DNA of 64,000 bases from the IMG/VR virus record IMGVR_UViG_3300009788_000087, one strand, 5' to 3'. The translations under genes and the position numbers were made by a program. Below are positions 2,050 to 44,184 of the stretch, one piece after another. The notes under the pieces were generated by a model. The model made no database searches and had not been told where the DNA came from. It saw only the letters and a list, made by a program, of their open reading frames with translations. The number at the start of each line of letters is the position of its first letter. The first letter of the stretch is position 1. Source of the DNA: a virus.

Positions 2050-2168
2050 AATCCCTCAGAAAATGGGGACCACCAGAATTCTCGGTGACATGAGGAGGAA
2101 GGACTGGTTATCCAGCCCGGATCGAGAGAGAGTGCCACTGATCGTCTCTGGTGGTCCCGTATAGTGTG

Positions 2169-2354
2169 TTAGCTTGTCTTCGCGTCCTGGTCCCTAACCT
2201 TCTCGTCGAGCGTCGACTTAAGGAGATTGACAGCAATCTTCTTGCGGGGCTGCCATGAACACAAACCCTTGTAATCGCCCTTCGCAACTCGGGCAACCCA
2301 GTACTTCTTATCGTTGAAGTATGTGGTGATGACGTGATTTCTATAGACTTCCAT
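2169..2354 (-). CDS. small hypothetical protein
   Basis: 61-aa ORF with GGAG RBS, co-oriented. Confidence 0.55.
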   Translation of the reverse strand: MEVYRNHVITTYFNDKKYWVARVAKGDYKGLCSWQPRKKIAVNLLKSTLDEKVRDQDAKTS

Positions 2355-2363
2355 TATCTGCTC

Positions 2364-2552
2364 CTACAACCACGGGATTCCATTCTCGTCCAGCTCTTCC
2401 TTCTTCTCATCCTTGTCTTTATCTTTGTCCTTATCATCTTGTGCTAGTGGACCGCCTTTCGCATAGGGACCATAATTATACTTTGCAGCAAGTTTCATCC
2501 ACGGTGATCCACCGAACATATCTTCTACTTGTTGTGTAACTTTATTGCTCAT
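2364..2552 (-). CDS. small hypothetical protein with DK-repeat acidic tail
   Basis: Probable start MSNKVTQ at 2552 with GGAGAG RBS; DDKDKDKDKDEKKEE low-complexity run. Confidence 0.6.
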   Translation of the reverse strand: MSNKVTQQVEDMFGGSPWMKLAAKYNYGPYAKGGPLAQDDKDKDKDKDEKKEELDENGIPWL

Positions 2553-2778
2553 TGTTTCTCTCCTCTGTGATTGATGTTCGTCGTCCAACTTCAAAAGTCT
2601 TTGTGTTATTACGCGTCTCATCTTCATAACACACGTATTCAATATTCACAGACCCACATTTACTACACCACTGTATACGGTCTTCATAAATACCAAACAT
2701 ACAAACGAAAGCATACACTTCAATAAAGTCATGCTTATGTGGATTTACTTCTGGCACGTGAACACTCCTTGCAAACAT
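2542..2778 (-). CDS. small hypothetical protein with CxxC motif
   Basis: WCSKCGS motif; start uncertain. Confidence 0.45.
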   Translation of the reverse strand: MFARSVHVPEVNPHKHDFIEVYAFVCMFGIYEDRIQWCSKCGSVNIEYVCYEDETRNNTKTFEVGRRTSITEERNNEQ

Positions 2779-3095
2779 TAAACTCGAAACTAACAGCTGT
2801 CGAGCGCCATGCTTTGATTGAGTACGGTATGACAGACACTAAAGCCCAACACATAAACAGTGACACAAGCCAGTGCTCGTCCATGAATTCCCAGATATTC
2901 ATAACTTAATCTCTCATAAATAACCAAAACATAAATGCTAAAAATGACAATGACAATAATAATGCTAATACTTCTGCTGTGTTATCATCCATCGATCAGC
3001 CTATTCGAATCAGGACCATGACGCCATTCATCATATTTCTTGCGTGCTTTCCAGCCTCCGTATAGTCCTACTACAATGAGTATCGTTGTAATCAT
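2735..3095 (-). CDS. three tandem micro-ORFs encoding hydrophobic peptides (2985..3095, 36 aa; 2906..2992, 28 aa; 2735..2902, 55 aa)
   Basis: Manual translation; ATG starts, head-to-tail packing, one hydrophobic stretch each; below the ORF-track cutoff. Confidence 0.5.
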
Positions 3096-4087
3096 TAGTT
3101 ACATTCGACATATACATGTCGCCTTCTGTTGAGAGTCTCGAACCCGACAATCACATTGTTCTTCTTTAGGTCAGCCTCGGCACGACTGAGTACATCACGC
3201 CAGAAGTTACCGCTGCAGTTTCCACTCCACTCAGACGTGATCCATTCCACGACACCGTTATGTTCGTTGTAGGAGTAACCACTCAGTTTCTCACCTTGGA
3301 GTAGAAGCTCCTTCGCTTTCTCAACGAAGTCATCCTTCTTCCTGGCAGAACTGATTCGACTGACTGCTTCCTCTGCGTTTTCAATTAGGCGGAAGTCTAT
3401 TCCGTGTGCTGTCATTGGAAACTCGTACGGCATGTTTCCAGGACCGAATCGATTCTTGGTCAGCTCAAAGACACGGTTGCCCGTGTCTCTATTGATGTCA
3501 AGGCGTGCGTGTACATCGACAGCATGCTTCAGCACCATGGGACCAGCGAATGTGCCGCCCTTCGTGATGTGTCCGACAAGGACGATGGTGATGCCATGAT
3601 CATTAGCGAATCGTACCATCCTATTTCCAACGTCACGAATAAGACCTTGTCCATTTCGATCACCATATGTCAGCGTCTGAATGGAGTCTTGGAATAAGAT
3701 ATCTGTTCCGCTCTCAAGAACATGTGCTAGTAGATCATCAAGCTCTGAGAATTGAGAGATGTTGAAGTCTGCCTGAAGCTCAAGACGATTGGCACGCATC
3801 TTCACCATGTACTCATTCTCCTCTCCAACATTGAAGAGAATCTTGTGACCTGTGTGTCGGCTCATTAGATCAGCCAACTGCAGTGACATAGTGCTCTTGC
3901 CTGCACCTGGAAATCCAGTAAACAGAACTGTTGCACCAGGAAGAATCCCTGGCATGTCCTGTCCACCAAAGATCTCATCCAGGAGTGGGACACCCGTTGT
4001 AATCCTGTTGTAGTATTTCTCAGGAACCTCTACATCCCTGAGTTTATGTACGTTGCCGCTCACATACCCGAGCTTCATCGCTGTCAT
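3095..4087 (-). CDS. radA: RadA/Sms-like ATPase (RecA-fold core only)
   Basis: Walker A GFPGAGKST, Walker B-like FQDSIQ, signature KNRFGP, RITTG..LDEIFGG start; no N-terminal Zn finger or Lon domain. Confidence 0.85.
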   Translation of the reverse strand: MTAMKLGYVSGNVHKLRDVEVPEKYYNRITTGVPLLDEIFGGQDMPGILPGATVLFTGFPGAGKSTMSLQLADLMSRHTGHKILFNVGEENEYMVKMRANRLELQADFNISQFSELDDLLAHVLESGTDILFQDSIQTLTYGDRNGQGLIRDVGNRMVRFANDHGITIVLVGHITKGGTFAGPMVLKHAVDVHARLDINRDTGNRVFELTKNRFGPGNMPYEFPMTAHGIDFRLIENAEEAVSRISSARKKDDFVEKAKELLLQGEKLSGYSYNEHNGVVEWITSEWSGNCSGNFWRDVLSRAEADLKKNNVIVGFETLNRRRHVYVECN

Positions 4088-4161: not shown

Positions 4162-4449
4162 TTAGTTTAGTCCTTCTCTTCCACCGCCTGGTTTTCCTGG
4201 GTTCGTGTCAGTGGATACCTCGACGAAATAGGACTCGTCATCATCGATCAGATCACCAGGTTCGATGTCATGCTCACACTCACACACGCCACACGCCACA
4301 CACTCATCACTGGTATCATCTAAGTCAGCGAAAATATCAGCAAGCATTTTCTTTCGAAACTGACGGTCACCCCATTTCATTCCACAAAGGAAGATTAAAG
4401 CCACAGCAATAAGAACAAGAAGCACAACAATCAAATTACTCACGATCAT
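4162..4449 (-). CDS. membrane-anchored small protein with Cys cluster
   Basis: N-terminal hydrophobic helix, CVACGVCEC, acidic tail. Confidence 0.65.
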   Translation of the reverse strand: MIVSNLIVVLLVLIAVALIFLCGMKWGDRQFRKKMLADIFADLDDTSDECVACGVCECEHDIEPGDLIDDDESYFVEVSTDTNPGKPGGGREGLN

Positions 4450-5086
4450 ATCTCCACCCAGTTTCTTGTTTTATCCACGTCAATCTCTCTGATGTCATGC
4501 ATTGTGTTTGCAATCTATAGTCTTCATCATTTTTATATCTTTCAATAAAATGTAAGAAGTCAAACCAGGATTCTACATGCACGTCAGCGCACTGCTCGCC
4601 CCTATTCCATGGTCTGTCTAGACAGACTGACGTGCCACGGAAATCACGTAGATTATGTGCTCCATCATCAAACAACATATCTCCATTGATTAGTTCCTTA
4701 CGATGGCAGACAATGAAATTACTAAGCTTGAACCACGGCATGTAATCACGAAGCCAGTCTTTCTTCTCTTCCACTGCAGTACTTGATCTAATCGGCGAAG
4801 CTGTAGCAATTACTATATCATTGCCATAAGATAATTTAACGGCTCCATCGAGGGCGCCGTCAACGGGTTCCATGTTGAAATAGAATCCAGGTTTACTGAG
4901 ATAATCATAGATTTTCATTCCACACTCAGGCTTTACCCAATAGTGTATGTTCCATCCTCTTATATCCTCGAGCGTGCGGTCATCATCATAGTCGATGTTG
5001 TATGCATCGAGCCACGCTTGATTTGTTTGAACGAGGATGTCATCCATGTCGAGGACGATTAGCATTAACGAGTACCATGTTTCCAT
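4436..5086 (-). CDS. 5'(3')-deoxyribonucleotidase, HAD superfamily (NT5C-like)
   Basis: DMDDIL motif I, IATA motif II, K..WL, FDDGAHN motif IV, PWN; true start probably a few codons in. Confidence 0.9.
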   Translation of the reverse strand: METWYSLMLIVLDMDDILVQTNQAWLDAYNIDYDDDRTLEDIRGWNIHYWVKPECGMKIYDYLSKPGFYFNMEPVDGALDGAVKLSYGNDIVIATASPIRSSTAVEEKKDWLRDYMPWFKLSNFIVCHRKELINGDMLFDDGAHNLRDFRGTSVCLDRPWNRGEQCADVHVESWFDFLHFIERYKNDEDYRLQTQCMTSERLTWIKQETGWRYDRE

Positions 5087-9019: not shown

Positions 9020-9538
9020 CTATGACACGCATCGTGATGAATGATCTAGGATACACTCGTACGACACCATCCCACTCGAAGGTAATCCAGCTGTACCGTG
9101 CTCATCGACAGGAGTAGATAGCTGTAATGTATCATTCGTCAAGGGCACAAGAGTACCATCACATGTGAGTGTGGGTTCAGTCTGGCTAATATAAATCGTG
9201 TGATCCCATTGTGGTGCTGTGTTCGGAGTGCTCACGGTCGGAGCTGTTCCCCACCAATATTGTGGATAAGACGGAGGATAGACTGGCCAAGTCTGTTGTG
9301 GCCATGCATGTGGCTGCGTACGCTCATGGTTAGTGAGAGCGTCCTGAATCATGCGAGTGACACTCTCCTCGTTTAGAATCCGCTTACCAGTCTTGCTCGA
9401 CTCATTCTTCTTGTCGCCACTGGGCTTCTCGAGTTGAGCCAGTTCCTCAGCTGTGCCTTCAAATTCAATGACAGTGCCGTCAGGCTGTGTTATCTTCTTC
9501 TTCATTATCTGTAATCTCCATCTTCCATTGTGAACCAC
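9020..9538 (-). CDS. hypothetical protein with Pro/Trp/Tyr-rich low-complexity region
   Basis: WPQQTWPVYPPSYPQYWW; true start likely MKKKITQ. Confidence 0.6.
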   Translation of the reverse strand: MVHNGRWRLQIMKKKITQPDGTVIEFEGTAEELAQLEKPSGDKKNESSKTGKRILNEESVTRMIQDALTNHERTQPHAWPQQTWPVYPPSYPQYWWGTAPTVSTPNTAPQWDHTIYISQTEPTLTCDGTLVPLTNDTLQLSTPVDEHGTAGLPSSGMVSYECILDHSSRCVS

Positions 9539-10016
9539 GACCGAAATCTTTAAGATCCACGCCGTCTATATAGATATCATTCTGACATATAACTTCTACA
9601 GAATTATTCATCAGGAGCTCGATGCCTTCTGTATTCCTGTATAGTTCCGTGTACACGACTTGTTCAATTCCAGCATTTATGATTCGCTTAGAACACATCT
9701 TGCAGGGTGATGTCGTGGTATACAAGCGTTTAAATGAAGGATCATTGAAGTCTAACTTGATGATAGCATTCTCTTCCGCGTGCAAGCATCCACATTTTCC
9801 TGGTTCTTTCGAATCACAACCGTGTGGCCCGCCCTTGTAATTTCCATTGTAGCCGATGGCAAGAACACGATTGTAGTCCCACGATGTGATGACACATCCA
9901 ACTGAGGCTCGCAAACACATACTTCTCTTACTGAGAATATACGCGAATGTCAGATATACGTCAGCCCAGCGAGGACGTGAGACAATCGTTGAGCTCTCCT
10001 CGTATACGTAGCTCAC
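9480..10016 (-). CDS. dCMP deaminase (cytidine/deoxycytidylate deaminase family)
   Basis: S.C.R..VG, GYNG, HAEEN and PCKMC zinc motifs. Confidence 0.93.
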   Translation of the reverse strand: MSYVYEESSTIVSRPRWADVYLTFAYILSKRSMCLRASVGCVITSWDYNRVLAIGYNGNYKGGPHGCDSKEPGKCGCLHAEENAIIKLDFNDPSFKRLYTTTSPCKMCSKRIINAGIEQVVYTELYRNTEGIELLMNNSVEVICQNDIYIDGVDLKDFGRGSQWKMEITDNEEEDNTA

Positions 10017-10351
10017 ACTATCGTGAATACATCTTGATTAGATGTCAGTGCTACAACCACAGCGACAGTGCTACCACGATCGATGGGGATTGAGGCAGCT
10101 AAACACTTCACGTGTGCTTCAACCTCTTGTCCTGGAAGAACGAGTGTTGCTTTGTTGACTAGCTCTAACCCCTGACTGCGTGCATAGTCGCACTCTAACA
10201 ATAATACTGGTACGTTAAAGGTAACACCAAGCGGAACACGTTTAACTTCATCTTCTGCAAGATTAAAATCAAGTGGTGCGCCCAACCTAAGAACTGGTAG
10301 TTCTCCTTTTGGTGTTGTTCCATCGCCTAATTGACATTCTACTATAGCCAT
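10013..10351 (-). CDS. degenerate trimeric dUTPase-like protein
   Basis: Residual VPLG and I.RG..VA patterns; catalytic motifs not recognisable. Confidence 0.4.
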   Translation of the reverse strand: MAIVECQLGDGTTPKGELPVLRLGAPLDFNLAEDEVKRVPLGVTFNVPVLLLECDYARSQGLELVNKATLVLPGQEVEAHVKCLAASIPIDRGSTVAVVVALTSNQDVFTIV

Positions 10352-10362
10352 AATCTTTCCCT

Positions 10363-11490
10363 TTATCTATTCACTACGTTTTCAATCTTATCCACGAAAT
10401 TGGATACATCCATAAATCTTAGCTTCTCTATGTTCTTTGACCTGATGTCATCACGTTCTTTTACACTGATAGTTGCGAGGTTTTCAACGATGAAACACAG
10501 CTCATTAGGATCATCAGCTATGAACTCCACATAGTCTTCGATACCTAAGTGTGGTTTCAGGCCGACAGGTATCGTACCAAATAACAGCGCTTCCCATGGT
10601 CGAGGAGTAATGAACCCGCTCTCAAGGTATGACTGCTTACCAAGCAATGGACACGCAGCTGCAGTACCATACACACGTCTGAAATCTGATATCGTTATAC
10701 GTTCGTTATACAAGACATACGGCCATTTCAATCTGCATTCAGTAAGGTTCGGTTCGCGTGTCCAGTTGCCCCAAAACTCTACTTCAAACCTAAATGCCTC
10801 GCTGACAGGTGCTATCCACTTATCGATGACATCATCTCTTTCGTACCTTGATCCAATGTAAACGAGCTTTCTACTCTTACTAACGGGGAGTGTTGGGAAC
10901 TGGTATAGATCATCTACTACGATTGGCGGCTCCACTCTTGTTCTATAAAATCCGTAGTCCAACGGTTTGACTGACGTCTCAAAGATTGCATCGGGTGCCC
11001 ACTTCACCTCATCCTCTAGCGTTAGTTTATGATCTAGATCCCACAGTATAATCTTGGTGCTCTTACCTTTGAAGTATTCAAGTATCTGCGTCTGTCTATC
11101 AAGGTCTGACTGATAGCCCACATCATTAATATCTATGTCAATGTTCCTACCTGGAATTGGGAAGCGCCATTCAATGAGAAGCACGTCAAGTTCGGGTAGT
11201 TCATCCAATTCAGTCAATGAAATGTCTGCTGTTGTTAACGTCTTGAACGATCTACGCCATGCATTATATCGTTTTTCAGTAGAGAATGAAGAGAATGCAT
11301 TATGAAACTTACCACTCACATATTCAAAGTCACGATCACGTTGAAGTAAATACGTCTCCCATCCTCGCTTCTGTGCTTCATGAAGAATGGACCATGAGTA
11401 CGCTGCATTACCATCAGGGGTGGAAACTTCCTTGCCGAACTCGAATTTACGATCAGCGATGAATCCCCAGTATGCGTAACCTAATCTCAC
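10363..11490 (-). CDS. GT-B glycosyltransferase resembling T4 DNA beta-glucosyltransferase
   Basis: C-terminal LVYIGS...VEFWGN...LLGKQSYLESGFITPRPWEAL parallels BGT VIYGGS...IEFFGN...IIGDKNYNDNFITLRVWETM (BGT recalled from memory). Confidence 0.75.
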   Translation of the reverse strand: MRLGYAYWGFIADRKFEFGKEVSTPDGNAAYSWSILHEAQKRGWETYLLQRDRDFEYVSGKFHNAFSSFSTEKRYNAWRRSFKTLTTADISLTELDELPELDVLLIEWRFPIPGRNIDIDINDVGYQSDLDRQTQILEYFKGKSTKIILWDLDHKLTLEDEVKWAPDAIFETSVKPLDYGFYRTRVEPPIVVDDLYQFPTLPVSKSRKLVYIGSRYERDDVIDKWIAPVSEAFRFEVEFWGNWTREPNLTECRLKWPYVLYNERITISDFRRVYGTAAACPLLGKQSYLESGFITPRPWEALLFGTIPVGLKPHLGIEDYVEFIADDPNELCFIVENLATISVKERDDIRSKNIEKLRFMDVSNFVDKIENVVNR

Positions 11491-11759
11491 TTAGTTTGCT
11501 TGTGGGGATATGATGGAGAAGATGGGCGCCCACTTGGGTGAATGTCATATTCGATACTGCCATGTTTACTCGGGTGATATGCATCAGAAGCATTCGCTTG
11601 AGTTGCATATGGTATTAGCTTCTTAAATCTTTCAAGTTGTGTAACTTTAATTATAAGCTCGTTAATCTGTGCTTCACGTGTCTTACTTGGAACAACAGGA
11701 AGTAACCAAATCGAGAACCTAAAGAACTTTATCGATAGCCATTTTCTAAATCTTCTCAT
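11487..11759 (-). CDS. small hypothetical protein
   Basis: 90-aa ORF overlapping both neighbours by 4 nt. Confidence 0.55.
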   Translation of the reverse strand: MRRFRKWLSIKFFRFSIWLLPVVPSKTREAQINELIIKVTQLERFKKLIPYATQANASDAYHPSKHGSIEYDIHPSGRPSSPSYPHKQTK

Positions 11760-12301
11760 AACTCTACCTTTACACCGCTATCTGAATTTAGACTGCGTAT
11801 TAGGTTAATCTTTTCCGTGAGTTGCGGCAACTGTCGTTCAATGTCATCATCGTAGTCATCAACAAAGATCTTAATAACATGACAATTCGTCTGATGATAG
11901 AATCTCGTATATCTATTATGTAGTGCTTCTAATTTGTGTGATTCTACGAGCTCATCATTTACTACAGAATAATCATGACGCAGACACATTACGACAATAG
12001 CACCCATCTCGCTCCACTCACTATCAATTCGATTCAGTGGTTCAGAAAGTGTTGAGCGTCCATACACGTCTGAATACACGATCTCTGATATGTAGCATCT
12101 ATCTGACACAAACGCAGTGTCTGTCTGTCTCACAAACTCAGGTAACAGTATATCAAATGGAATAGAGCTTGTAAAACAATCATTGATCCAGTTTGATTTT
12201 TCAGTTGTTACCTTGAAATATGGGATCCCATAGTGATTAGAGAGAGCGTGGGAAATATGAGTTTTGCCGCATCCGTCTGGACCTTCTACAAAGATGATCA
12301 T
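11756..12301 (-). CDS. dNMP kinase (thymidylate-kinase-like P-loop)
   Basis: MIIFVEGPDGCGKT, SDR motif; ATG at 12301 overlaps upstream TGA. Confidence 0.85.
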   Translation of the reverse strand: MIIFVEGPDGCGKTHISHALSNHYGIPYFKVTTEKSNWINDCFTSSIPFDILLPEFVRQTDTAFVSDRCYISEIVYSDVYGRSTLSEPLNRIDSEWSEMGAIVVMCLRHDYSVVNDELVESHKLEALHNRYTRFYHQTNCHVIKIFVDDYDDDIERQLPQLTEKINLIRSLNSDSGVKVEL

Positions 12302-12996
12302 GGTTTTCTTACACACCAATAATCTGAGGGTGCTTGCCCTTCTTCGTTCGACCATCTTTCGTGCTCTATTGGAAGATCGTGTAGAGGACTATAAAACATA
12401 TCACCTACTGCAGCCATCACACCTTTCCAATATTCGCAGTAATCATCACCGAACATAATGCCACCAGCACGAAGTAGTGGCCAGTATGCTTCGAGATCTG
12501 CTAAGACATCTTCATACTCATGGCTACCATCAATGTAGATGAGGTCTGCTTGCACGTCTTTCTTTCGCAATAGACGAGCAGCATTTGTTGATGTCTGTGG
12601 AAATGGTGTGATTCGACCTTGGTTCCCAGTTATAATTACATTTGCAAGAAACTGATAGTATACTTGTGGATAACCATTACACAACTCGAGAGACTTGTAT
12701 CTCTTCTCGTCCTTGTGGTCCTCCCAAAATTCTGTCGCACCAAGCCATGTATCAACACATGTAATCTCAGTCTTACCTCTTAACTCTGGATCTGCGCCGC
12801 ATATATCTGCCATCGTGATCGCAGACTTACCTTTCCATGTACCAACCTCAATGATAAGTTCAGGTTTTACTTCATCGATCTTCTTCTTGAAATATTCATA
12901 ATGTCCGCCCCAACCTTGAGCATCGAATGAATATGCTACTAAAGGAAAATCCTTGTAGATGTCATGGTCGTAAAGAATATCATAGATTCTACTCAC
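12298..12996 (-). CDS. class I SAM-dependent methyltransferase (Methyltransf_24-like)
   Basis: IEVGTWKGKSA, VDTW, YIDGSHEYEDV..D, GGIMFGDDY; probable GTG start at 12996. Confidence 0.88.
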   Translation of the reverse strand: MSRIYDILYDHDIYKDFPLVAYSFDAQGWGGHYEYFKKKIDEVKPELIIEVGTWKGKSAITMADICGADPELRGKTEITCVDTWLGATEFWEDHKDEKRYKSLELCNGYPQVYYQFLANVIITGNQGRITPFPQTSTNAARLLRKKDVQADLIYIDGSHEYEDVLADLEAYWPLLRAGGIMFGDDYCEYWKGVMAAVGDMFYSPLHDLPIEHERWSNEEGQAPSDYWCVRKP

Positions 12997-14077
12997 TGCC
13001 AACCCCTTTGAATAATCCTGCCCAGATCTGCATGGCTTTGCCGAGCTTCTTGAAGTAGTCCGTATATTCGGGGAATTCATCATACTTGGTGATGTGTTTT
13101 CCGAGATGCATGTATATCGTATTAGCTTCTATATAACCTTCAACTATTCCAGGATGATCGAATGAGTCTACATACTCCCACAGCTTCTCATTCACCTCGA
13201 GACCATTTGCTTCCTTCTTTAGGTTGGTGAATGGATTGGATGCACGCTCGTGCCTGATGTATGGAATCCCGGTGCTGACAGTTTTACCTAGAATATCTGC
13301 GCACTTCTTCATAAAGATGCCGCACCATATGTCACCGAAGCGATCGAATGGAAGTTTTTTCAAAGTTGTATATGGTTTCAATTCAAAGTCTTCTGGCGTA
13401 ACTTTAGGTTTCAACTGTTGCCCCATCAGTAAGTGATACATCAGTACCGTGTACTCTGCTTTCCACATCACGTTCATCCCACACATGGGGAAGTATGAAC
13501 CATGGGGCACGATCTTATTGTCATAGGCAAACTTCTCTTCTACGGGATTGACGAGCTGAGTGGGCGCATCATAGTCTATTACATTCGTCCACAGCCCGTG
13601 ATTTACAATCGTATCGTTCCGTTCACCAAGATTGTAGAACGGTATTCCACGAGGTTTCACACAGTCGAGAGTATTGAACCATCTTGTGCGGCCACCATTG
13701 AGATATTTCTTGTGTTGCTCGACGAATCCTTTGCCATCATATATGTGATCCATCGGATAGCAGTCATCATCGAGTGTCATGATGTACCTATAGCCACATG
13801 AATGCGCATACCAATATGCAAAACTTCTGACAGTATCAGATCTTCGTGGGATTATCCACTCATCCTCACCAAGTCCATCCCGGATATTTTTCCAACACAA
13901 ATGTACGATATTATTTTTGGAACCATCAAAAACTTTGAATGTCTTTGTTGGATTGTCTTCCATAACAAACAGGTCTACATGATCGAATAGACCGATATCA
14001 TTCCACCTCTTATAAAAATCAGTGAAGCAATTCTCACGAATCGTAGGAACTATTAATGCGATTTCTTTAGCGATCAT
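12989..14077 (-). CDS. RGP / UDP-arabinopyranose mutase homolog (GT75)
   Basis: TLDDDC, RGIPF, HGLWTNVIDYDAPTQLVNP, FPMCGMN, TGIPYIRHERASNPFTNLKKE match conserved plant RGP/UAM blocks. Confidence 0.88.
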   Translation of the reverse strand: MIAKEIALIVPTIRENCFTDFYKRWNDIGLFDHVDLFVMEDNPTKTFKVFDGSKNNIVHLCWKNIRDGLGEDEWIIPRRSDTVRSFAYWYAHSCGYRYIMTLDDDCYPMDHIYDGKGFVEQHKKYLNGGRTRWFNTLDCVKPRGIPFYNLGERNDTIVNHGLWTNVIDYDAPTQLVNPVEEKFAYDNKIVPHGSYFPMCGMNVMWKAEYTVLMYHLLMGQQLKPKVTPEDFELKPYTTLKKLPFDRFGDIWCGIFMKKCADILGKTVSTGIPYIRHERASNPFTNLKKEANGLEVNEKLWEYVDSFDHPGIVEGYIEANTIYMHLGKHITKYDEFPEYTDYFKKLGKAMQIWAGLFKGVGSE

Positions 14078-14080
14078 CTT

Positions 14081-17000
14081 TTATCCCTCTACCTCATCCA
14101 CATTAATTAATGCACCATCTGCACTGTATTCACTGTGTGCCCATCCCGGTTTGCCAAGCACGAGATTCTGTGGTTCATCCAGCTTTCTATTGAAGGTGGC
14201 AAAGAATACATTACCCTTCACTGCTTTCTTCGCAATGTACCGCCAGATTGTTGCGAAGCACGGTGCGTCAAACTCAGTCCCATTTCTGTCACCGAACTTA
14301 ATGAATGCCATCATGCCACCACGAGACTGAGCACGTTCACGGACATCTTTAATGATTACAGGGATGACACCGATTTTATCCTCTGACTTCACAAACTCTT
14401 CAAAGTCTTGAACCATGCCTTCCTTAGCAAGTATCTCTATCTTCTTATCCCTATCGAATAGTTTGAATGGTGTACCAATAAGATTGAATCCAAGCAACTC
14501 ATTCTCATACTCTACAAGCTTAGCGATTGGATGCGGTTCACACTCAAGAGCAAAGTACTGCTCTTCAAATTCAGCTTTCTTTTTCTTGACGCGAAGCTTT
14601 GGATTGTCCTGCCACAATTCATACCTCAACTCAGTCAGCGCCATGTTCTCTTCCAATGAAGTAAACGCACCGACCTTGATAAGGGGAACCGTTGCAGTCT
14701 TACCACCGCCTGTCTTATAGAGATAATCACGTAGACTCTCATACGGTTGGCTCTTCTCAATCTTCTTAACAGCTGCGTCACCGACACCCAACGCAGAACC
14801 AAGTGCTAACCTGATCGCAACACCCTCAATCTTGTGAAAAGCACTCGATTTATTGATATCTACCGGCAGAATCTTAAATCCCTGACGCTTGATGTCGTCC
14901 ACATAAGATTGAAGATCATCTGCTTTACCATGAATTAGAAGTGCTGTAAAGAATTCAAGTGGATAGTATGTTCGAAGGAATGCAGTCTGCATGGAGATCA
15001 TAGCATAGCACTTGGCATGACTGGCATTGAAACCATATCCACCAAAGTGCTCGAACATATTCCATAGTTCAAGACCCTGCTTCTCAGTCAATCCATTCTC
15101 TACACATCCCTTAACGAATGGTTCTCTTAGCTCCTTCTTCTCGTTCTGAAGGAAGTCATCCTTCTTTGACTTGTCTTTCTTTAGGAACAGCTTCCTAAGT
15201 CTGTTGACATGTGTCATCGGTAGCTTACCGAGGTGGTGACCGATGTTTAACATCTGTTCCTGATATACAAGACAACCGTAAGTCTCCTTCATGATCTCTT
15301 CCATCATGGGATGCACATATTTGATCTTGTCAGGGTTGTGTTTGTTCTCAGCGTATAGCTTATGCATGCCTGAACCAAGTGGTCCCGGTCTATAGATCGC
15401 ACCGATCGCTGACACGTCATTGAAGCAGTCAGGTTTAATCCGTTGAGCTACTTTCCTGATACCTTTGTTTGTAAACTGAAATATGCCCGTGAAATTCCCG
15501 TCGATGAAGACTGTCTTGATTACTTTCTGATCATCGATGTCCATGTACGTTGGATCGACCATCTTATATGCTTCATCATAATTCATGTCATGTCGTTTAG
15601 ATATTAGCCTAAGTGCACGGTCGATGACCGATAGAGTTGAAAGCGACAGTATGTCAAACTTGACAAATCCCATCGCTGAACATTGCTTGTTAACAATCCC
15701 GTCAGTGAACGATGTTTGTAGAACTCCTTTATTCTGGAATAGAGCCATCTCTCGAGGTAGGTTGTCTCCGATAACGAGGCCACAAGCATGACGTCCCACG
15801 TGACGATTCTTCCCATACAACTTAGTGATATTTTCACCGATGACGGGATACTTCTCGACGAGAGCTCTGTAAGTAGGAGAGACTCTAACGACATCTTCGT
15901 ACTTGATGTCGATGGTGGACTTGTCTTGGCCTTTACCTCGCAAGACTCGAAGCTCGCCCTCGATTTTCTTGTTTGCCTTGTTGATCTCTCGATGGTCGAT
16001 ATCATAGACACGTGCTATATCCTTGAGTAGTCCCTTAATTTGGAATGTACCGTATGTGCTGATGCAAGCGACGTTGTCGTGACCGAACATCTCACGGAGC
16101 ATTTCGCGCGCTTGCTCGCTATCTTGAAAATCAGTATCAATGTCAGGAAGCTCGACACGGGAAGGGTTAATAAATCGCTCGAATAGAAGATTATGTTTAA
16201 TGGGATCGAGATCTGTGAGACCACTGAGGTAACAAACAAGAGAACCAGCAGCACTACCACGTCCCGGTCCCACGAGCATTTGCTCTTTGGCTTTGGTAAT
16301 GATGTCACGCATAATGAGGAAGTATGAGGCAAAACCCTTCTCCTTAATCAGCTTCATTTCATGCATGAAGCGTTTACGATACTGCTCATCATCAGTGAGG
16401 TTCAGCTCTTTCATCCTCGCAATGGCCACCTCACCCAGTTTCTTGAATGGATGCTCGAACCTACACGTTGGAAGCCTCTCTTCCGTATTAGGTTCATAGT
16501 CTTCAACCATCGAGTCAATGAGCAGTGTATTTTCAAATGCCTCACGAACAAGATTTGCATCTGCATCGCCACCAAAGCGCTCGAATGTTTCCCACATCTC
16601 TTGAGGTGACTTAATGTAGAGCTGCTTGATATTAAAATCCCAGTCATCTCCTCTTGTCGACATCGTCTTCTGACTGCGAAGCATGTAAAGAATTTCCTGC
16701 GCAGCCCACTCGTCTGAGTTCACGTAGTGTGAATCGCATGTTACATTGAGCGGGATTCCAGTCTCATGATGCACTTTGATAATAGACTCGTTGATAAATC
16801 GCTGAGAATCAGACTCGTTGAACTGCAGCTCAAGGAAGAATCTGTCACCGAAGATCTCCTTATATTCTTCAGCTTCACGAACGACATCACTCCACTCAGC
16901 GTCACCGTTCTTCCATGCCCAGCACCTATTAGCAATGACTCCGCCCATGCACGCTGAAGACGCGATGACTCCGTTACCGAAATCATTCATCATCCTCTTA

Positions 17001-17464
17001 TCGATCCTCGGCTTCATGTACATGCCCTCCTTGTGCGCAAGGTGTGTGAGGTTGTACAAGTTATCGAGACCCGCCTGATTCTGTGCTATGAGAACAAGGT
17101 GACCTTTCCTATAGAGAGACTTCTGTCTACTCTTCATATCGAGATTGGTAGCATCTTCATCTACCGCCTCAGACTTCTTTAGCTTCTTCAGTGACTCCTT
17201 GTCGGACTCTAACTTTGCTTTCTCTTCTGACCACTTCTTTAGATCATCAATCGCATATGCTTCAACACCGTAGATTGTGCGGACTCCATGTTTCTTTCCA
17301 TGCAGATAAAAATCTGCAATACCATGCATATGCCCATGATCAGTTAGTGCAATAGAGCAAAGACCTTTCTCCTTCGCTTTAAGGACCATGTCTTCAGGTC
17401 GAGACAGACCATCCATGAAACTGAAGTGGGAGTGATTGTGCAGACTAGCAAAATCTTTTATCAT
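14081..17464 (-). CDS. dnaE: DNA polymerase III alpha subunit
   Basis: PHP HNHSHFSFMDG, GPGRGSAAGSLV, PDIDTDF, KFDILSL, VYQEQ, YGFNASHA, C-terminal OB fold; no intein. Confidence 0.97.
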   Translation of the reverse strand: MIKDFASLHNHSHFSFMDGLSRPEDMVLKAKEKGLCSIALTDHGHMHGIADFYLHGKKHGVRTIYGVEAYAIDDLKKWSEEKAKLESDKESLKKLKKSEAVDEDATNLDMKSRQKSLYRKGHLVLIAQNQAGLDNLYNLTHLAHKEGMYMKPRIDKRMMNDFGNGVIASSACMGGVIANRCWAWKNGDAEWSDVVREAEEYKEIFGDRFFLELQFNESDSQRFINESIIKVHHETGIPLNVTCDSHYVNSDEWAAQEILYMLRSQKTMSTRGDDWDFNIKQLYIKSPQEMWETFERFGGDADANLVREAFENTLLIDSMVEDYEPNTEERLPTCRFEHPFKKLGEVAIARMKELNLTDDEQYRKRFMHEMKLIKEKGFASYFLIMRDIITKAKEQMLVGPGRGSAAGSLVCYLSGLTDLDPIKHNLLFERFINPSRVELPDIDTDFQDSEQAREMLREMFGHDNVACISTYGTFQIKGLLKDIARVYDIDHREINKANKKIEGELRVLRGKGQDKSTIDIKYEDVVRVSPTYRALVEKYPVIGENITKLYGKNRHVGRHACGLVIGDNLPREMALFQNKGVLQTSFTDGIVNKQCSAMGFVKFDILSLSTLSVIDRALRLISKRHDMNYDEAYKMVDPTYMDIDDQKVIKTVFIDGNFTGIFQFTNKGIRKVAQRIKPDCFNDVSAIGAIYRPGPLGSGMHKLYAENKHNPDKIKYVHPMMEEIMKETYGCLVYQEQMLNIGHHLGKLPMTHVNRLRKLFLKKDKSKKDDFLQNEKKELREPFVKGCVENGLTEKQGLELWNMFEHFGGYGFNASHAKCYAMISMQTAFLRTYYPLEFFTALLIHGKADDLQSYVDDIKRQGFKILPVDINKSSAFHKIEGVAIRLALGSALGVGDAAVKKIEKSQPYESLRDYLYKTGGGKTATVPLIKVGAFTSLEENMALTELRYELWQDNPKLRVKKKKAEFEEQYFALECEPHPIAKLVEYENELLGFNLIGTPFKLFDRDKKIEILAKEGMVQDFEEFVKSEDKIGVIPVIIKDVRERAQSRGGMMAFIKFGDRNGTEFDAPCFATIWRYIAKKAVKGNVFFATFNRKLDEPQNLVLGKPGWAHSEYSADGALINVDEVEG

Positions 17465-17474: not shown

Positions 17475-17786
17475 CTAACTGATCGATTTCTTAGAAGACT
17501 TACTAATAGGTATTTCAGCGAGATATCCGCTTAAGACACTATCTCTAAGTCGTTCGTCAACGTAGGCTCTTTTTGCTTCTTCAAATGAACAACGACTCCA
17601 TCGTTCATTTCCAAGAGAATCTTTACTAAGAGACTCTGTAACGACATAAATCTCATATTGCTTGCCATTAATCCCTACATTTAGAAGATGATAAGGATCG
17701 TCTGCTCTCTCGGATGCAATGAAACGATAGTCCTTACATGATAACACAACTCTCGGTAGTTTTAGATTTTTAGTAACCACTTTCAA
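17475..17786 (-). CDS. hypothetical protein
   Basis: 103-aa ORF inside the coupled operon. Confidence 0.6.
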   Translation of the reverse strand: MKVVTKNLKLPRVVLSCKDYRFIASERADDPYHLLNVGINGKQYEIYVVTESLSKDSLGNERWSRCSFEEAKRAYVDERLRDSVLSGYLAEIPISKSSKKSIS

Positions 17787-18150
17787 ACCTTTCTTTTACA
17801 ACTCGGTTCTTACGACAGAACTCATTGTACATCTCTTGTGGTGAGATGCCGGACAGTATACAGATCTCCATGAAATACGCCAATGTATCTCCTAGCTCTT
17901 CAACATAGTGTGAACGATCGAATTCCCTATCATCAGTCACTTTATGTATCTTGTTCTTCAGAGTATACGTTGCCTCCCACAGTTCATTGTGACAGTCACT
18001 AACGATCTCCTTGATCATACGTTGACCCTGTTTAGTTGTCAAATCAATCGGCCAAGGAGGTAGGACATCACGTTCTTCCAATATCTGCATGTTCCCCTCT
18101 TGGCGATAGAACATGTCTTTCCATAAGTCAGTTGAAAGTGACATCGTCAC
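17770..18150 (-). CDS. all-alpha dNTP pyrophosphohydrolase (MazG / dimeric dUTPase / dCTPase-like)
   Basis: ELWEA...EELGD acidic helices and C-terminal KN......R...GY. Confidence 0.8.
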   Translation of the reverse strand: MTMSLSTDLWKDMFYRQEGNMQILEERDVLPPWPIDLTTKQGQRMIKEIVSDCHNELWEATYTLKNKIHKVTDDREFDRSHYVEELGDTLAYFMEICILSGISPQEMYNEFCRKNRVVKERFESGY

Positions 18151-18550
18151 TCCTTACCTTATAAGTCTGCGGACCGGACGCATCAGTTATCAGGCACTTA
18201 CCAACGTTAGACACGAGATCCCACGCGCATGATGGGTGCCAATAACTTTCAAGCAAACCCTGCACCTTTGATCGCATAAAATCATTCTCACTGAATAAGA
18301 TGATTGTCCCTACATTTATACAACATAGATGCCCGATGAGTTCGTCGGTCAACTCGACACCCCTTACAAAGATCTTATCGTAGACCTTCGAGTAGTTGAG
18401 ATCAGATACGTCTTCTACATGATCCAATTCAGCTACATACTTCTTCATGAACGACATTGGATCTGCACCAAGGAACAGCATCCTATCAGAAGACCTAACT
18501 CCTGTCACGTCAGAGACGTCATCACATTTGCTATACGGATTCTTTGTCAC
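18128..18550 (-). CDS. hypothetical protein
   Basis: 140-aa ORF overlapping both neighbours. Confidence 0.6.
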   Translation of the reverse strand: MTKNPYSKCDDVSDVTGVRSSDRMLFLGADPMSFMKKYVAELDHVEDVSDLNYSKVYDKIFVRGVELTDELIGHLCCINVGTIILFSENDFMRSKVQGLLESYWHPSCAWDLVSNVGKCLITDASGPQTYKVRSDDVTFN

Positions 18551-19511
18551 GTTTTTCCTTATGCTCCACTAGTTGTTGAAACATCCACAATAGAGTTTCA
18601 TTCTGTACTGGCAATGATTTTGGTAGTAGTGCACCAGTTCGAAGGCATTCCTCTGCCGTTATTAGAATATCTAGCTCCTCAAGATTACTCAGCGGTGCCA
18701 TCGGTTCAGTGAATTTACCTCGTTTTGGACTAGAATCTTTTATCCACTTCGCATACCTTTGCCTATGTTCATTCAACATCTTCTCTGATAATTCGTAGTG
18801 TCGATCATAGACATGGAGTGAACCAGTTGTGTGATAATACAGACCAAGCTCTAAGTCTGGATAGTGTTTCTTTAGCTCTAATAACATGCACTCTTGAAAG
18901 AGAGTGAACGAGAATAAATCATACGTCAGTCCCCAGTGTACATCATTTGAGCGCATATTGACATGGAGATGTAGCTTATTCTCTCGAATAAAGAATTGAA
19001 GAGAAAGCGTGCACGGTACATCTTTGGATCCTTCAGTATCTGCATTAAACTGATGTACTGGTTGGTGGATTTGCAACACTGCTCTTCTGCTATCTTTGTC
19101 AGATTTAAGCGTGTTAATACAGATTTTCCACTGGTCAACTTTTGCTGCTTTATCTGGTCCTGTTGGTGCCATCCCATGAATGATATGACCATACGCAGAT
19201 ACTACAGTCTTTCCGTCATCTGAAAACTGCGGCATCCTCTTGTTGTAGTACGTCATCTCCTCAAGAGAGTTCGAGCCGCGCCAATACCAAAGGAACTCAC
19301 CGACTGCAAACGCATATTTAGACTTACGGACTTTAGATGATAGTAGTCTGTTACGAGGATCACTGAGGATCAAGCGAGGTACTAAGACTTCTCTTACTTC
19401 AGTGCCACGTGGTTTGCAAACATAGTCAGGGAAAGACATCTCCATGAGGACATCGTACATCAACTCATCGAAGCTATCCTTGACAAACCTATATCCCACC
19501 ATTGGCTTCAT
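18531..19511 (-). CDS. thymidylate synthase homolog, predicted dCMP-modifying (hydroxymethylase-type)
   Basis: GEFLW, DSRRA, catalytic PCT, MRSNDVHWGLTYD with Asp at the Asn177 specificity position, LHVY. Confidence 0.85.
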   Translation of the reverse strand: MKPMVGYRFVKDSFDELMYDVLMEMSFPDYVCKPRGTEVREVLVPRLILSDPRNRLLSSKVRKSKYAFAVGEFLWYWRGSNSLEEMTYYNKRMPQFSDDGKTVVSAYGHIIHGMAPTGPDKAAKVDQWKICINTLKSDKDSRRAVLQIHQPVHQFNADTEGSKDVPCTLSLQFFIRENKLHLHVNMRSNDVHWGLTYDLFSFTLFQECMLLELKKHYPDLELGLYYHTTGSLHVYDRHYELSEKMLNEHRQRYAKWIKDSSPKRGKFTEPMAPLSNLEELDILITAEECLRTGALLPKSLPVQNETLLWMFQQLVEHKEKRDKESV

Positions 19512-24957: not shown

Positions 24958-25521
24958 TTATCCTGTTAGTTCAAGATCACACTCGACCTCATTGCCCCAT
25001 GAATCCCAACCGTCTGTTTTCTCTCGTGCAAACAGCTCGATGCGCGGTACATAGCTGACAATCTCTATCATCTCTCGCATCTCATCAGGTTTCTGCGAAT
25101 GTCTCTGACGTGGTGCTATGATCGCAGTTCTACCTTGCAGACGACCACCTTCTTCATTTCTTCGATAGGGTAGTCGACCCATGACACCGAACAGACATGA
25201 TTCAGACGCTCCTCTGAAATACTGTCCTAGCCCACACTGCAGTTTCTTGTTAACCTTGACCCAGTCTATCTTCGTAACATACCTGAATCCCCAAGACTGC
25301 ATAATCCTAAGACCGTGTGGCAAGAAGTTATTCGTCACCCACATGTAAAGATGAGAACCTTGTTCATCAGCTATATCACGAACAGGGAGTGCCTCGATCT
25401 CAGCAAGAGACATGACTGGATAGTGTCTATCAGAACCCCAACTTCTTCCTGTCTTATCTTTACCACCAACTTCTTTCCACGGAGGATCAACTAGTATTGT
25501 TCTATATCTCTGATCAGTCAT
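24958..25521 (-). CDS. MT-A70 family N6-adenine methyltransferase
   Basis: ILVDPPW, Y..M...EI..LPV, LYMWVTN, WGF.Y, HSQKP, RIELFAR..GWD.WGNE. Confidence 0.92.
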   Translation of the reverse strand: MTDQRYRTILVDPPWKEVGGKDKTGRSWGSDRHYPVMSLAEIEALPVRDIADEQGSHLYMWVTNNFLPHGLRIMQSWGFRYVTKIDWVKVNKKLQCGLGQYFRGASESCLFGVMGRLPYRRNEEGGRLQGRTAIIAPRQRHSQKPDEMREMIEIVSYVPRIELFAREKTDGWDSWGNEVECDLELTG

Positions 25522-29764: not shown

Positions 29765-32700
29765 TTATTTCTCTTCCTCATCCTCTGGCGGAATCTCTTT
29801 ATTATTGACACGATTAAACTGAGCAGTCGACCAAGGAGAAGACTGCGCGCCGCGGCCAGCAGCATAGTGACCCATGCCCGACATCGACATGCTAGTGCCT
29901 GGAGGGGCGCCAAGCTCAGCAATGAATCGTTCAGCGAGCTTTCTTGATGCATGCTCCAACACATCGGGCTCTGCACCAGGTGAATTAGATTTACCTAGAT
30001 CATTGATTATATAATGAGAACCCCGCTTCATCACATTACCACTGTGATAATCAGCGAATTCGATATTGTGTTGTCTCAATTCAGCATGCATTTCAGGAAT
30101 GTTGTATTTCTTTAAGAGATTTATATTGAACCCATACTGTCTCGTTGTAGCCTTTCTAATCTTATTTGCACCCTTGGGATCATTTGGATCTACACCAAGT
30201 TCTTTTGCAGCTTCCTCTTTATATTTTTCATAGAGAGCATTTTCAAACTCTTCCCATGATTTTGTTGCAACAATCTCGATAAGATCATCATGCTCTCCCA
30301 TAAAATCAGTTGCTCTATCAACATCACGTTTTTCAGTAGCGCTAAGTTCTGTCAACTTCTCTGTTACAATACCGTAGATTAATGGCTCCTCTCCAGGAAA
30401 TCTGAATACATCAAAGATCTTTACGACGTGTTGTAAAGCTGTTTTTCCTTTGAGCGAATTGCTGGTCACTGCTTCTCGTGCATCTGTCGTGACTTTAAGA
30501 ACTTTTCCTCCGCCTGCATCAAATGCAATACCCATCGCTCCATGACCAAGATATCCGAGTGATGACGCATTAATACCAGTTCTCTCTTTTAGTTTATCAG
30601 CGTTCACTATCACGATCTTTTCAAGATTATCAATGCCCACTGACTCTAGATCTGGGGATTTTTCTACTTCTGCTTCAGTGATTGCTTCCTGGATAGAGAT
30701 AACATCTTTCATCTCTTCACGCATGTCATCATAGATGTTATCAAACCCCTGTGGATCTGAGATAACGTGTGCGTCGAGCATCTTCTCAACGGTGTTCCTG
30801 TCATTCTTGGCAAGTGCGTCGCGAATTGCAGTGGATGATATTCTTTCCATGTCATCCATGTCATTCTTCACACCAGGAAGTTTCGTGACATTAACGAGTG
30901 CTGGATCGAAGTTGGGTAGATTCTCCCTGTTTGCAGCTGCATGCTGCATCTGTTTCTTCATGCTCTCGAATCTATCGGGACCGACAAGCACGTTGATAGC
31001 AATTTCGGGTTCAATGGATGAATTGTGATCGTTGATAATGTCAGACAACACGCCTGGAATGTAGCCGCTGGCTTTACCTTCCCACTCAGCCACATACACT
31101 TCAACCTTCGGCATGACATCAGGTAGAGATCTTTGCATCATCTCTACTCTTGTCTCGTATGACCACGGATTCTTCTTGTCTCTCTTGTTTCCTGCTACAA
31201 TGACCACGACCTTTGTGAACTTTGATGCTAGGTCACGGATGATCGCTGCATGTCCTTTATGGAAAGGCTGGAAGCGACCGATAGTCACGCCGATAGTGTC
31301 TGCTGGGTTGTAGTTTGGTTCTTCAAACATGCTCTTCACAACTTCAGACACTATGTTATCAACGGTATTCATTGATTCTGAAACTTGAACGCCTGGAACA
31401 TATTCCTTTACCCAATTCGCTGCCCCACGTGAACCGAAATCGTCGTTATCAGCATCCCAATCTTCGAAGTCATGAGAAAGAATCTTCGCATTCGGGGCAG
31501 CTTTCCTAAAGAAATCGACGAGCGCATTCCAATGTATATGAGACAAACCACCACTTTCCAGATCAGAAATATTATGCACTTCTTTCATGTCAGGTGTAAT
31601 TGTTACCATCGCTCCACGATTTTTTAAAACTGGATTATCTCCCTTGTGTAAGACCCATAAGTCTGCACGTTTTGCCAGCATGTCGGGATCATGACCCGTA
31701 TTGCGCCACTCATATCCACCATCTATTTTTACAGCGCTTCTTGAATCACCTCCAGTGATGAATCCAACAAATTTTTCATTTTCCTTAGAACGAAGAAGTT
31801 CCTCATCATTAAGTTCTGATTTTGTTTTGTTGAAGAACTCTTTCACATACTTCCAATATTTTTGATCAGGAGCTCTATTCTCTTTTCCTTTTATCTGAAG
31901 AACTGTTTTATTTGCTTCATTCCACGTCATCGTCACGTGTGGTTTATTGCTTGGATCACGAAGCGAAATTAAATTGCCACGTTCATCTTCACCACAGTGT
32001 CCCATTTTTTCAGCTTCATGAGGGCATGACGATTTCTTAAGATCAGTCCAATAAAAACCATCAGGAAATTCAATGATAGCATTGCTTTTATCTCGCTCTG
32101 CCGAAGCATCATCTGCAATCGTTTCAATTGTATTAAAGTCTTTTGCTGCCTGTATTTTCTTGGCTAGATGTGGTTTTTTCTTCAAAGTAGAAAGAAGATT
32201 TGAACCAAAATCCTCCATAAATTCATCGACTCTATCTTTTCTTTTTCCCAACTTAAAGCGCTGAATATTAGGTGGAAGCTGATCGTCGATGGTGAGAGAT
32301 TCGACAAAGTCGTCATCCCATTTTTCACCATAAAGTTTAAACGCTGTAGCAAGTGCAAAAGTATGTTTTTTATCTATCTCATAGAAATGATCAGCTGCCC
32401 ATTTTGGAAACTTAAGAAGCCTCGTAATATTTCCACGTGAGTCTTCATCGATCATGCCGACAGTGTCCGCCTCATTGGCGGTCTGATCACTACCGGCTTC
32501 TAGAAAAATAGAATAAACCTGTTCTCGAATGATTGACTCAAGCACATCGGGTTCTTCTCCACCTTGGACATCTGAAAGACCAATGTCAATCAAGACATAT
32601 TCGCCTCCCCTCTTCATGAGGTTTTCACCTCGATAATCAGAGAATGAAATGCCTTTTCCTTTCAATTCCTCCCATGAAGACTTTACTTTGTATTCATTTT

Positions 32701-42427: not shown

Positions 42428-42727
42428 TCAGCTATCACGGCTTTCTCTTTCTTCGACAAGTTTCTGTGCAAAATACCTAATGAAGTCTGTCTCAAAGAAC
42501 TCCATGGCTGCTTCGAACACAAGCTCCTCAGACTGATCGACATATGATACATCTACCTGAGGATAGTGTAAACACCATAATGTTAGTGGGTTTCCTTCTG
42601 GATCCTTTGGATCCCTGACATCATCCTTGTGTAGACGATATTCTGCTTTTACCTCAGCACCCTTCACACACATTTTTGCTGAGTCTTGTCTAACCAAATT
42701 CTCGAGGTTTAGTTGAAAGTCAATCAT
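42428..42727 (-). CDS. hypothetical protein
   Basis: 99-aa ORF overlapping the polymerase stop. Confidence 0.6.
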   Translation of the reverse strand: MIDFQLNLENLVRQDSAKMCVKGAEVKAEYRLHKDDVRDPKDPEGNPLTLWCLHYPQVDVSYVDQSEELVFEAAMEFFETDFIRYFAQKLVEERESRDS

Positions 42728-44177: not shown

Positions 44178-44184
44178 CTCCTTT

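Follow-up and report, generated by a model that had tools for sequence, protein, structure and literature searches.

What does a gene of glycosyltransferase family 75 (GT75), the family of the reversibly glycosylated polypeptides (RGPs), do in a bacteriophage, directly behind the gene for a DNA polymerase? The question is raised by the uncultured viral record IMGVR_UViG_3300009788_000087, of which a stretch of 64,000 nucleotides (the window) was analysed, and by an open reading frame (ORF) on its minus strand that runs from an ATG at 14077 to a stop codon at 12989 and encodes 362 aa. GT75 enzymes are divalent-metal-dependent and flavin-independent, and interconvert the pyranose and furanose forms of nucleoside diphosphate (NDP) sugars via a transient sugar-arginine adduct. 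We lean, with modest confidence, towards the reading that this protein is a mutase converting an NDP-pyranose into the NDP-furanose with which 5-hydroxymethylcytosine (5hmC) in the phage DNA is furanosylated.

The ORF encodes a full-length GT75/RGP protein, with a match far beyond chance.

12989..14077, minus strand: GT75/RGP-family protein, predicted Mn2+/Mg2+-dependent NDP-sugar pyranose-furanose mutase (Pfam, MtdL alignments, AlphaFold2 (AF2)/Foldseek).

The first-pass annotation of the window had placed an RGP homologue at exactly this ORF on the basis of short sequence blocks, and the translation contains every one of them: DDD (residues 103-105), HGLWTNVIDYDAPTQL (160-175), FPMCGMN (196-202) and ASNPFTNLKKE (279-289). 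The profile search that it proposed bears this out, as Pfam PF03214 (RGP) matches end to end, with residues 4-360 covering profile positions 4-341 of 342 (E 4.1e-39; 135.2 bits, curated cut-off 23.8 bits). Searching the Protein Data Bank (PDB) with the sequence returned MtdL and rice OsUAM2 only, both members of GT75, and a profile built from 50 relatives matched these two at E 4.5e-48 and 1e-45 (the latter for MtdL). The AF2 model (predicted local distance difference test, pLDDT, 92.6) has OsUAM2 (template modelling score, TM, 0.74/0.78) and MtdL (TM 0.70) as its top Foldseek matches, at E ~1e-20, with generic GT-A enzymes trailing at E 1e-6 or worse. No flavin-dependent uridine diphosphate (UDP)-galactopyranose mutase (UGM/Glf) occurs among the Pfam, PDB sequence or Foldseek matches, all of which are GT75 or GT-A. 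PHROGs has no family for the protein. NCBIfam release 20 has no model matching it, and both of the NCBI-named entries among its best 120 homologues are labelled hypothetical protein, which may help explain why a link between GT75 and phage DNA has stayed unnoticed; in the literature searched, no paper links GT75 or RGPs to phage DNA modification.

Residue roles in this family have been set by mutagenesis of MtdL and AtRGP2. In MtdL, Asp109-111 and His287 were identified as metal ligands by structure and mutagenesis, Arg159 serves as the nucleophile that becomes glycosylated, catalysis requires Asp195 and Asp260 (Asp260 being the best base candidate), Arg257 and Arg289 contact the diphosphate, and Ser86-Asp87 is located at the base/sugar pocket (PMC9937993). 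A HMMER alignment to MtdL gives D103-105, H276, R143, D168, D249, R246, R278 and S80-D81 of the phage protein as the equivalents of these catalytic and binding residues. R143 sits in the motif PRGIPF and aligns with MtdL R159 (OsUAM1 R158), and D168, R246 and D249 (RFGD motif) align with MtdL Asp195, Arg257 and Asp260. In 120 close relatives all the listed residues are conserved in 120/120, except H276 in 119/120, and R143 is also invariant in a diverse 50-sequence alignment. The earlier assignment of DDD as the metal site stands, D103-105 aligning with MtdL D109-111 in a position kept by every one of the 120 relatives. With its catalytic residues intact and invariant, the phage GT75 protein should be catalytically competent.

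The GT75 gene belongs to an operon for replication and nucleotide metabolism, to which it is joined by translational coupling. Transcription runs through the genes for a ThyA homologue, a 140-aa ORF, a MazG-like protein, a 103-aa ORF, DnaE, GT75, a Methyltransf_24 protein, a P-loop kinase, p90, a GT-B glycosyltransferase, p112 and a deoxycytidine monophosphate (dCMP) deaminase; a further gene of the wider nucleotide-pool module is given last.

18531..19511, minus strand: ThyA homologue of the dCMP 5-hydroxymethylase type, 326 aa (MilA match, motifs).
17770..18150, minus strand: MazG-like nucleoside triphosphate pyrophosphohydrolase, candidate dCTPase (PHROG 12184, E 3.4e-15).
14081..17464, minus strand: DnaE-type DNA polymerase III alpha (Pfam PHP, DNA_pol3_alpha, finger, HHH_6).
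12298..13083, minus strand: class I S-adenosylmethionine (SAM) methyltransferase, Methyltransf_24, CmcI/rhamnosyl O-methyltransferase-like (PF13578, E 1e-20; PF04989, E 4.6e-8).
11756..12355, minus strand: P-loop kinase, deoxynucleoside monophosphate (dNMP)/thymidylate-kinase-like (AAA_28, 4e-8; dNK, 1e-4; PHROG 761 'thymidylate kinase', 2.4e-13).
11487..11759, minus strand: p90, 90-aa ORF with 4-nt overlaps with the kinase and GT-B genes (gene calls).
10363..11490, minus strand: 375-aa GT-B glycosyltransferase, candidate enzyme for the glycosylation of 5hmC in DNA (AF2/Foldseek).
10013..10351, minus strand: p112, 112-aa ORF between the GT-B and dCMP deaminase genes (gene calls).
9480..10016, minus strand: dCMP deaminase (PF00383, 2.5e-17; PHROG 174, 3e-43).
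4436..5086, minus strand: NT5C-type 5'(3')-deoxyribonucleotidase, wider nucleotide-pool module (PF06941, PHROG 2643).

The DnaE stop codon lies 3 nt ahead of the GT75 start, and a Shine-Dalgarno-like AGAGGGA is found within the 3' end of the DnaE gene, ahead of GT75. From GT75 through the methyltransferase, kinase and p90 to GT-B, adjacent genes overlap by 4-8 nt, and p112 shares 4 nt with the dCMP deaminase gene. In the public gene calls the methyltransferase has a GTG start at 12996, giving an 8-nt overlap with the GT75 stop, and the kinase has 181 aa with its start at ~12301. Pfam and PHROG searches gave no match for p90 or p112; a weak p112 homologue occurs in one related locus (L089), and homologues of the MazG-like protein are present in related cassettes.

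The ThyA homologue points to the base that would be modified. Its best match in the PDB is the CMP hydroxymethylase MilA (E 6e-32), against 7e-16 for ThyA and 7.5e-15 for T4 gp42, and its motifs KDVPC and MRSNDVHWGLTYD have Asp at the positions of E. coli ThyA L143 and N177, with D169 kept. Under experimentally validated signature rules, N177D denotes a dCMP substrate and L143D/E with D169 kept a hydroxymethyl product, while D169N is the signature of 5-hydroxy-dCMP synthases (PMC13326640). The enzyme is thus predicted to act on dCMP and to make 5-hydroxymethyl-dCMP, not 5-hydroxy-dCMP, and the hydroxymethyl signatures are found in 11/12 aligned phage ThyA homologues, the L095 match diverging in the motif. 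Two other activities were considered for this protein. A dUMP hydroxymethylase came into question because relatives of SPO1 gp29 are among the best full-length isolate matches, and was rejected because the uracil-specifying Asn position is Asp, as in MilA, where SPO1 gp29 differs; a 5-hydroxy-dCMP synthase, as in RB69, was rejected because the D169N signature is absent.

The GT-B protein, in turn, was placed by fold search only. Its AF2 model (pLDDT 91.7) has as top Foldseek matches the T4 alpha-glucosyltransferase (AGT)-DNA complexes 1YA6/1XV5/1Y8Z (E 7e-11, TM 0.63), and the T4 beta-glucosyltransferase (BGT) 1QKJ is also among the matches. The protein itself has no match in Pfam, PHROG or PDB sequence searches or among the INPHARED phage isolates, and its family profile has none among PDB sequences even at E 10.

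The association between these genes is conserved. All 12 IMG/VR loci with a GT75 at least 46% identical to ours have GT-B, kinase and DnaE no more than 10 kb away, and MazG, dCMP deaminase and the ThyA homologue are present in most of them; the same association was seen on contigs reached by looking up the proteins. When the search was made from the GT-B side, GT75 was present on 12/15 GT-B contigs, and the three without it keep the ThyA homologue, MazG, GT-B and DnaE. Two of these three come from phages of 45-47 kb, 91-99% complete, whose entire records lack GT75 and whose GT-B proteins form a separate long branch, which ties GT75, as an accessory, to one subfamily of GT-B. Such phages, with ThyA homologue and GT-B and no GT75, fit a role of GT75 as an accessory that changes the sugar donor.

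We additionally identified an independent acquisition of GT75 by the same cassette. A phage of another type (with DnaB, primase, PolA and RecA), represented by the contig L131, carries, in a row, dCMP deaminase, the ThyA homologue, MazG, kinase, GT75, a uracil-DNA glycosylase (UDG)-family gene and GT-B. Its GT75 groups with Dehalococcoidia genes outside the main phage clade, the remaining 11 phage GT75 form a clade of their own with 99% support (FastTree and IQ-TREE), and a single phage GT75 clade was rejected by the approximately unbiased (AU) test (p 0.015). Thus, the same cassette gained GT75 twice, which is hard to explain unless GT75 serves the cassette. The 52.8 kb analysed of the L131 record, itself estimated to be 67% complete, contain no short-chain dehydrogenase/reductase (SDR) sugar enzyme and no GT2 that might use the furanose in some other way. 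As a separate observation, the UDG-superfamily gene of L131 (10953-11705, plus strand; PF03167, E 1.3e-15) stands between GT75 and GT-B.

Taken together with the known chemistry of the family, these results suggest a pathway. The ThyA homologue would convert dCMP to 5-hydroxymethyl-dCMP, which the kinase and host enzymes would raise to the triphosphate, while the MazG-like enzyme would lower dCTP, and DnaE would build the modified nucleotide into DNA. GT75 would interconvert an NDP-pyranose and the matching NDP-furanose via a sugar adduct on R143, with D249 as the base and with D103-105 and H276 holding the metal, and the AGT/BGT-like GT-B would then glycosylate 5hmC in replicated DNA with the furanose donor so made. 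The pyranose may come from the host or from NDP-sugar genes of the phage itself. Candidate donors are UDP-L-arabinose, UDP-galactose, GDP-L-fucose and GDP-L-galactose. O-methylation of the sugar on the DNA may fall, in this phage, to the neighbouring methyltransferase. Among the close loci its gene is variable, being present only in the window, L006 and L095. Distant Methyltransf_24 homologues (E 1e-5 to 3e-9) abut GT75 in bacteria of the candidate phyla radiation (CPR), in a gammaproteobacterium and in unrelated viral contigs, which suggests a recurring pair of GT75 and methyltransferase.

L042:5506-5988: distant methyltransferase homologue next to GT75.
L044:5552-5977: distant methyltransferase homologue next to GT75.
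L084:6966-7730: distant methyltransferase homologue next to GT75.
L105:2664-3149: distant methyltransferase homologue next to GT75.
L112:9458-9973: distant methyltransferase homologue next to GT75.

Several observations weigh against this pathway. The likeness of GT-B to T4 AGT is one of fold (TM ~0.6, at 14% sequence identity), and for its model numerous GT4-like enzymes reach scores close to that of AGT. The residues for nucleotide choice in GT75 are mixed: base selectivity has been assigned to MtdL T13/N42/S86 for GDP versus P/D/D in plants for UDP (PMC9937993), and the phage protein has Pro11 and Gly200 as in the active plant RGPs, which use UDP-sugars, Ser80-Asp81 as in MtdL and Hyg20, which use GDP-sugars, and Pro43 at the position of MtdL N42. 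The context of GT75 in bacteria and in other viral contigs is glycan synthesis, not DNA metabolism. Cellular GT75 genes have as neighbours GT2 and GT1/4 glycosyltransferases, SDR epimerases/dehydratases, Wzx/Wzy and methyltransferases, and most viral GT75 contigs outside the close clade likewise have glycan genes. On viral GT75 contigs without GT-B (contig range L099-L168, including huge phages of 436 kb (L110) and 572 kb (L113)), the Pfam SDR 'GDP-mannose dehydratase/epimerase' accounts for 15/111 neighbour proteins and GT2 for 18/111; phage GT75 thus occurs in at least two distinct contexts. Finally, the near-complete genomes of two relatives, G001 and G002, each contain, away from GT75, a gene resembling an NDP-sugar dehydrogenase and three for SDR sugar enzymes, and a GT2-domain protein is also encoded by G001 (the search for GT2 covered G001 only), so that a consumer of the furanose donor other than DNA is available. 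These glycan-type neighbours and sugar genes would suit an active GT75 mutase whose furanose goes to separate glycan genes, for virion proteins or the host surface, its adjacency to DnaE reflecting early co-expression only. We regard this explanation as unlikely, given that the sugar genes of G001 lie ~30-110 kb away from GT75, that GT75 is translationally coupled to the kinase/GT-B run in every close relative, that in L131 it lies inside the DNA cassette, with no SDR or GT2 gene in the analysed part of that record, and that the cassette took up a GT75 on a second, independent occasion. The sugar genes of G001 and G002 could instead supply the pyranose substrate. UDP-L-arabinose would result from a UDP-glucose dehydrogenase acting together with a decarboxylase and a 4-epimerase; against the NCBIfam models for UDP-xylose synthase and UDP-arabinose 4-epimerase, the SDR enzymes of the relatives all scored below the cut-offs.

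A glycosyltransferase role of GT75 in place of a mutase role, in which it would add a second sugar to glycosylated 5hmC in DNA or glycosylate an arginine of itself or of another protein, appears to us more improbable still. It draws on the GT-A fold with its DxD motif, on autoglycosylation with sugars that are not isomerised, such as UDP-glucose in AtRGP2 (PMC9937993), and on an extra GT4-like gene near DnaE in some relatives, so that the number of sugars may vary. Nevertheless, no GT75 member is known to glycosylate an acceptor beyond its own arginine (PMC9937993), the full mutase set of R143, D168, D249 and S80-D81 is invariant in 120 relatives, and the operon has a dedicated GT-B. The first-pass annotation had named two possible roles, the supply of a furanose donor or the transfer of a second sugar; the former is the best fit to gene context, co-occurrence and known GT75 chemistry, with the activity itself a prediction, and the latter found no specific support, considering the self-restricted glycosylation of known GT75s and the separate AGT/BGT-like GT-B encoded three genes downstream. 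Very little weight falls on a catalytically silent relative that acts as a scaffold or regulator, like the plant class-2 RGPs (AtRGP5, OsUAM2): inactive GT75 paralogues are known in plants (PMC9937993) and class-2 OsUAM2 is the top structural match, yet the phage protein keeps DDD, H276 and R246, whereas inactive members lack the equivalents of His287 and Arg257 (PMC9937993) and rice UAM2 in PDB entry 8CID has DDN in place of DDD.

The furanose-donor mutase that we favour has partial counterparts in several known systems. MtdL, from the A201A pathway, and Hyg20, from that of hygromycin A, are pyranose-furanose mutases of GDP-L-galactose/GDP-L-fucose (PDB 7XPR-7XPV, 7YUA). The phage protein resembles MtdL in family and fold (profile E 1e-45, TM 0.70), in DDD, in the equivalents of Arg159, Asp195, Arg257, Asp260, His287 and Arg289, and in the Ser86-Asp87 dyad, and differs from it in overall sequence (~22% identity), in having Gly200-Met201 for MtdL Ser228-Gln229 (the first of the two is Gly in plants too) and in having Pro11 for MtdL Thr13, as in plants; moreover, MtdL serves antibiotic biosynthesis, whereas the phage gene stands in a replication and DNA-modification operon. 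Plant GT75 enzymes supply arabinofuranose for the cell wall. The phage protein shares with AtRGP1 the blocks FPMCGMN, DYDAPTQL and ASNPF.NLKKE, which we take the plant protein to carry. Plant clusters are among the nearest to it in the feature search described below. With the plant class-1 RGPs (OsUAM1, AtRGP1-3) it has in common a Pfam RGP match along the whole protein, a Gly at residue 200 (Gly216 in AtRGP2), the equivalent of the Arg that is autoglycosylated, and a Pro in place of MtdL Thr13 (PMC9937993). Unlike the active plant enzymes, it has Ser-Asp where they have Asp-Ser, and to class-2 OsUAM2, the sole plant structure compared, it is 21% identical.

Among phages, the DNA of RB69 and DLP3 contains arabinofuranosyl-5-hydroxycytosine, according to He et al. 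2026 as reported in PMC13326640. In the account given there, dCMP is the substrate of a ThyA homologue, the next enzyme is a dNMP kinase, and glycosyltransferases put a furanose on C5 of cytosine via an oxygen, with the genes near those for replication, much as we propose for our phage; unlike the pathway proposed here, RB69 and DLP3 make NDP-D-arabinofuranose de novo from ribulose 5-phosphate and need no mutase (PMC13326640). Their ThyA homologue has D169N and makes 5-hydroxy-dCMP, whereas D169 is kept here and 5-hydroxymethyl-dCMP is predicted. The closest logic is that of the Pootjesviridae (Rhizobium phage RL38J1), whose DNA has hexosylated cytosines with a base-proximal galactose, and in which a phage flavin UGM has been proposed to make UDP-galactofuranose (PMC13326640). 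There too a phage pyranose-to-furanose mutase is the proposed source of the donor for DNA glycosylation; however, that mutase is an FAD-dependent UGM of another fold and mechanism than GT75, and the base precursor is 5-hydroxycytosine. The operon also recalls T4 (gp42, gp56, gp1, AGT/BGT) in its predicted components, namely an enzyme of the dCMP hydroxymethylase type, a nucleoside triphosphate pyrophosphohydrolase, a dNMP kinase, a dCMP deaminase and a GT-B with T4 AGT and BGT among its structural matches. It differs in that the GT-B has no detected sequence similarity to AGT/BGT, that the polymerase is DnaE, and that GT75 and, in some members, a SAM methyltransferase are added.

The first-pass annotation had called the protein plant-type and thought it relevant to the origin of GT75. 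Both descriptions are weak in view of its distribution. Among the matches listed, GT75 homologues occur in at least 565 species genomes of GTDB, from Planctomycetota, Patescibacteria, Chloroflexota, Acidobacteriota and other lineages at 33-42% identity, and the best cellular homologues are ~35-42% identical to the phage clade; in IMG/VR, 93 contigs carry a GT75 relative, and ~1,000 clusters at the 50% identity level match GT75 at E 1e-3 or better. A language-model feature search (Atlas) found plant, viral and bacterial RGP clusters equally near. With this spread, and with a Ser-Asp dyad as in MtdL, plant-type is too narrow a label, and the wide bacterial, archaeal and viral occurrence, at such distances from the best cellular homologues, makes the bearing on the origin of the family weak. 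Thus, a plant origin of the phage gene does not hold up: nothing points to it, and there is no evidence of plant-to-phage transfer. In several genomes of Planctomycetota and Brocadiaceae (L012, L017, L018, L019, L021, L045, L050) we also noted a conserved ORF of ~1100-1180 aa directly 3' of GT75, whose length placed it outside the Pfam scan of GT75 neighbours.

The source phage is uncultured, and the GT75 protein's own contig has 196,492 bp. Its phage nature, already recognised in the first pass, is plain from the window, whose genes are all on the minus strand and include a T4-like tail sheath, a T4 gp19-type tube, baseplate genes, tubulin, RecA, DnaB, ribonucleotide reductase (RNR), DnaE and a PolA fragment. 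Other features of the window are as follows.

38331-39527, minus strand: tubulin (PhuZ-like) homologue (window scan).
42720-44207, minus strand: DNA_pol_A protein, 482 aa (window scan).
29765-37288, minus strand: giant 2507-aa ORF between 123-aa and 307-aa ORFs (Pfam InPase, CTP_transf_like).
24958-25521, minus strand: MT-A70-type adenine methyltransferase beside the RecA and flap endonuclease (FEN) genes (PHROG 359, E 1.7e-63).

The phage thus has a PolA-type protein besides DnaE, and the MT-A70-type gene would represent a second, independent DNA modification. More than 1,700 GT75 homologues were found, the best 120 of which are all at least 54% identical to the phage protein; among these 120, about a dozen clusters have contigs of 185-207 kb, indicating a sizeable uncultured phage clade. 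Isolates are distant: megablast against INPHARED with 7 kb gave no match, tblastn with GT75 gave only the uncultured 595 kb phage LR756511 (38%), and the nearest isolate phage by tail sheath is Microcystis phage Mel-JY01 (37%). Within the close clade, L005 has an extra GT4-like gene upstream of DnaE (2162-3226, plus strand; GT4-conflict, E 2.5e-6), and clade members may differ in the number of sugars; L005 also has a second AAA_28 kinase upstream of DnaE, and ThyX besides the ThyA homologue.

In its broadest form, which we put forward tentatively and hold a little short of even confidence, our proposal is that a clade of ~200 kb myophages and, separately, a PolA-type phage make an undescribed base, furanosyl-5hmC, O-methylated in some, with its donor from a GT75 recruited twice from bacterial glycan clusters. 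Whether restriction enzymes, CRISPR and type IV systems can act on a phage genome depends on the hypermodifications of its DNA, which also yield new enzymes for DNA labelling. The clade being abundant in metagenomes, the predicted modification may be common in nature, and the interest of the locus lies in a widespread candidate pathway of DNA furanosylation more than in a plant enzyme in a phage. Furanosylated cytosines have only recently been described, and their known donors are NDP-arabinofuranose made de novo or, as proposed, the product of a flavin UGM (PMC13326640). If the proposal is true, GT75 would be a third, mechanistically unrelated donor route for a DNA glycosyltransferase, this would be the first role of GT75 in nucleic-acid modification, and a family known chiefly through research on plant cell walls would gain its first function beyond the synthesis of glycans or antibiotics.

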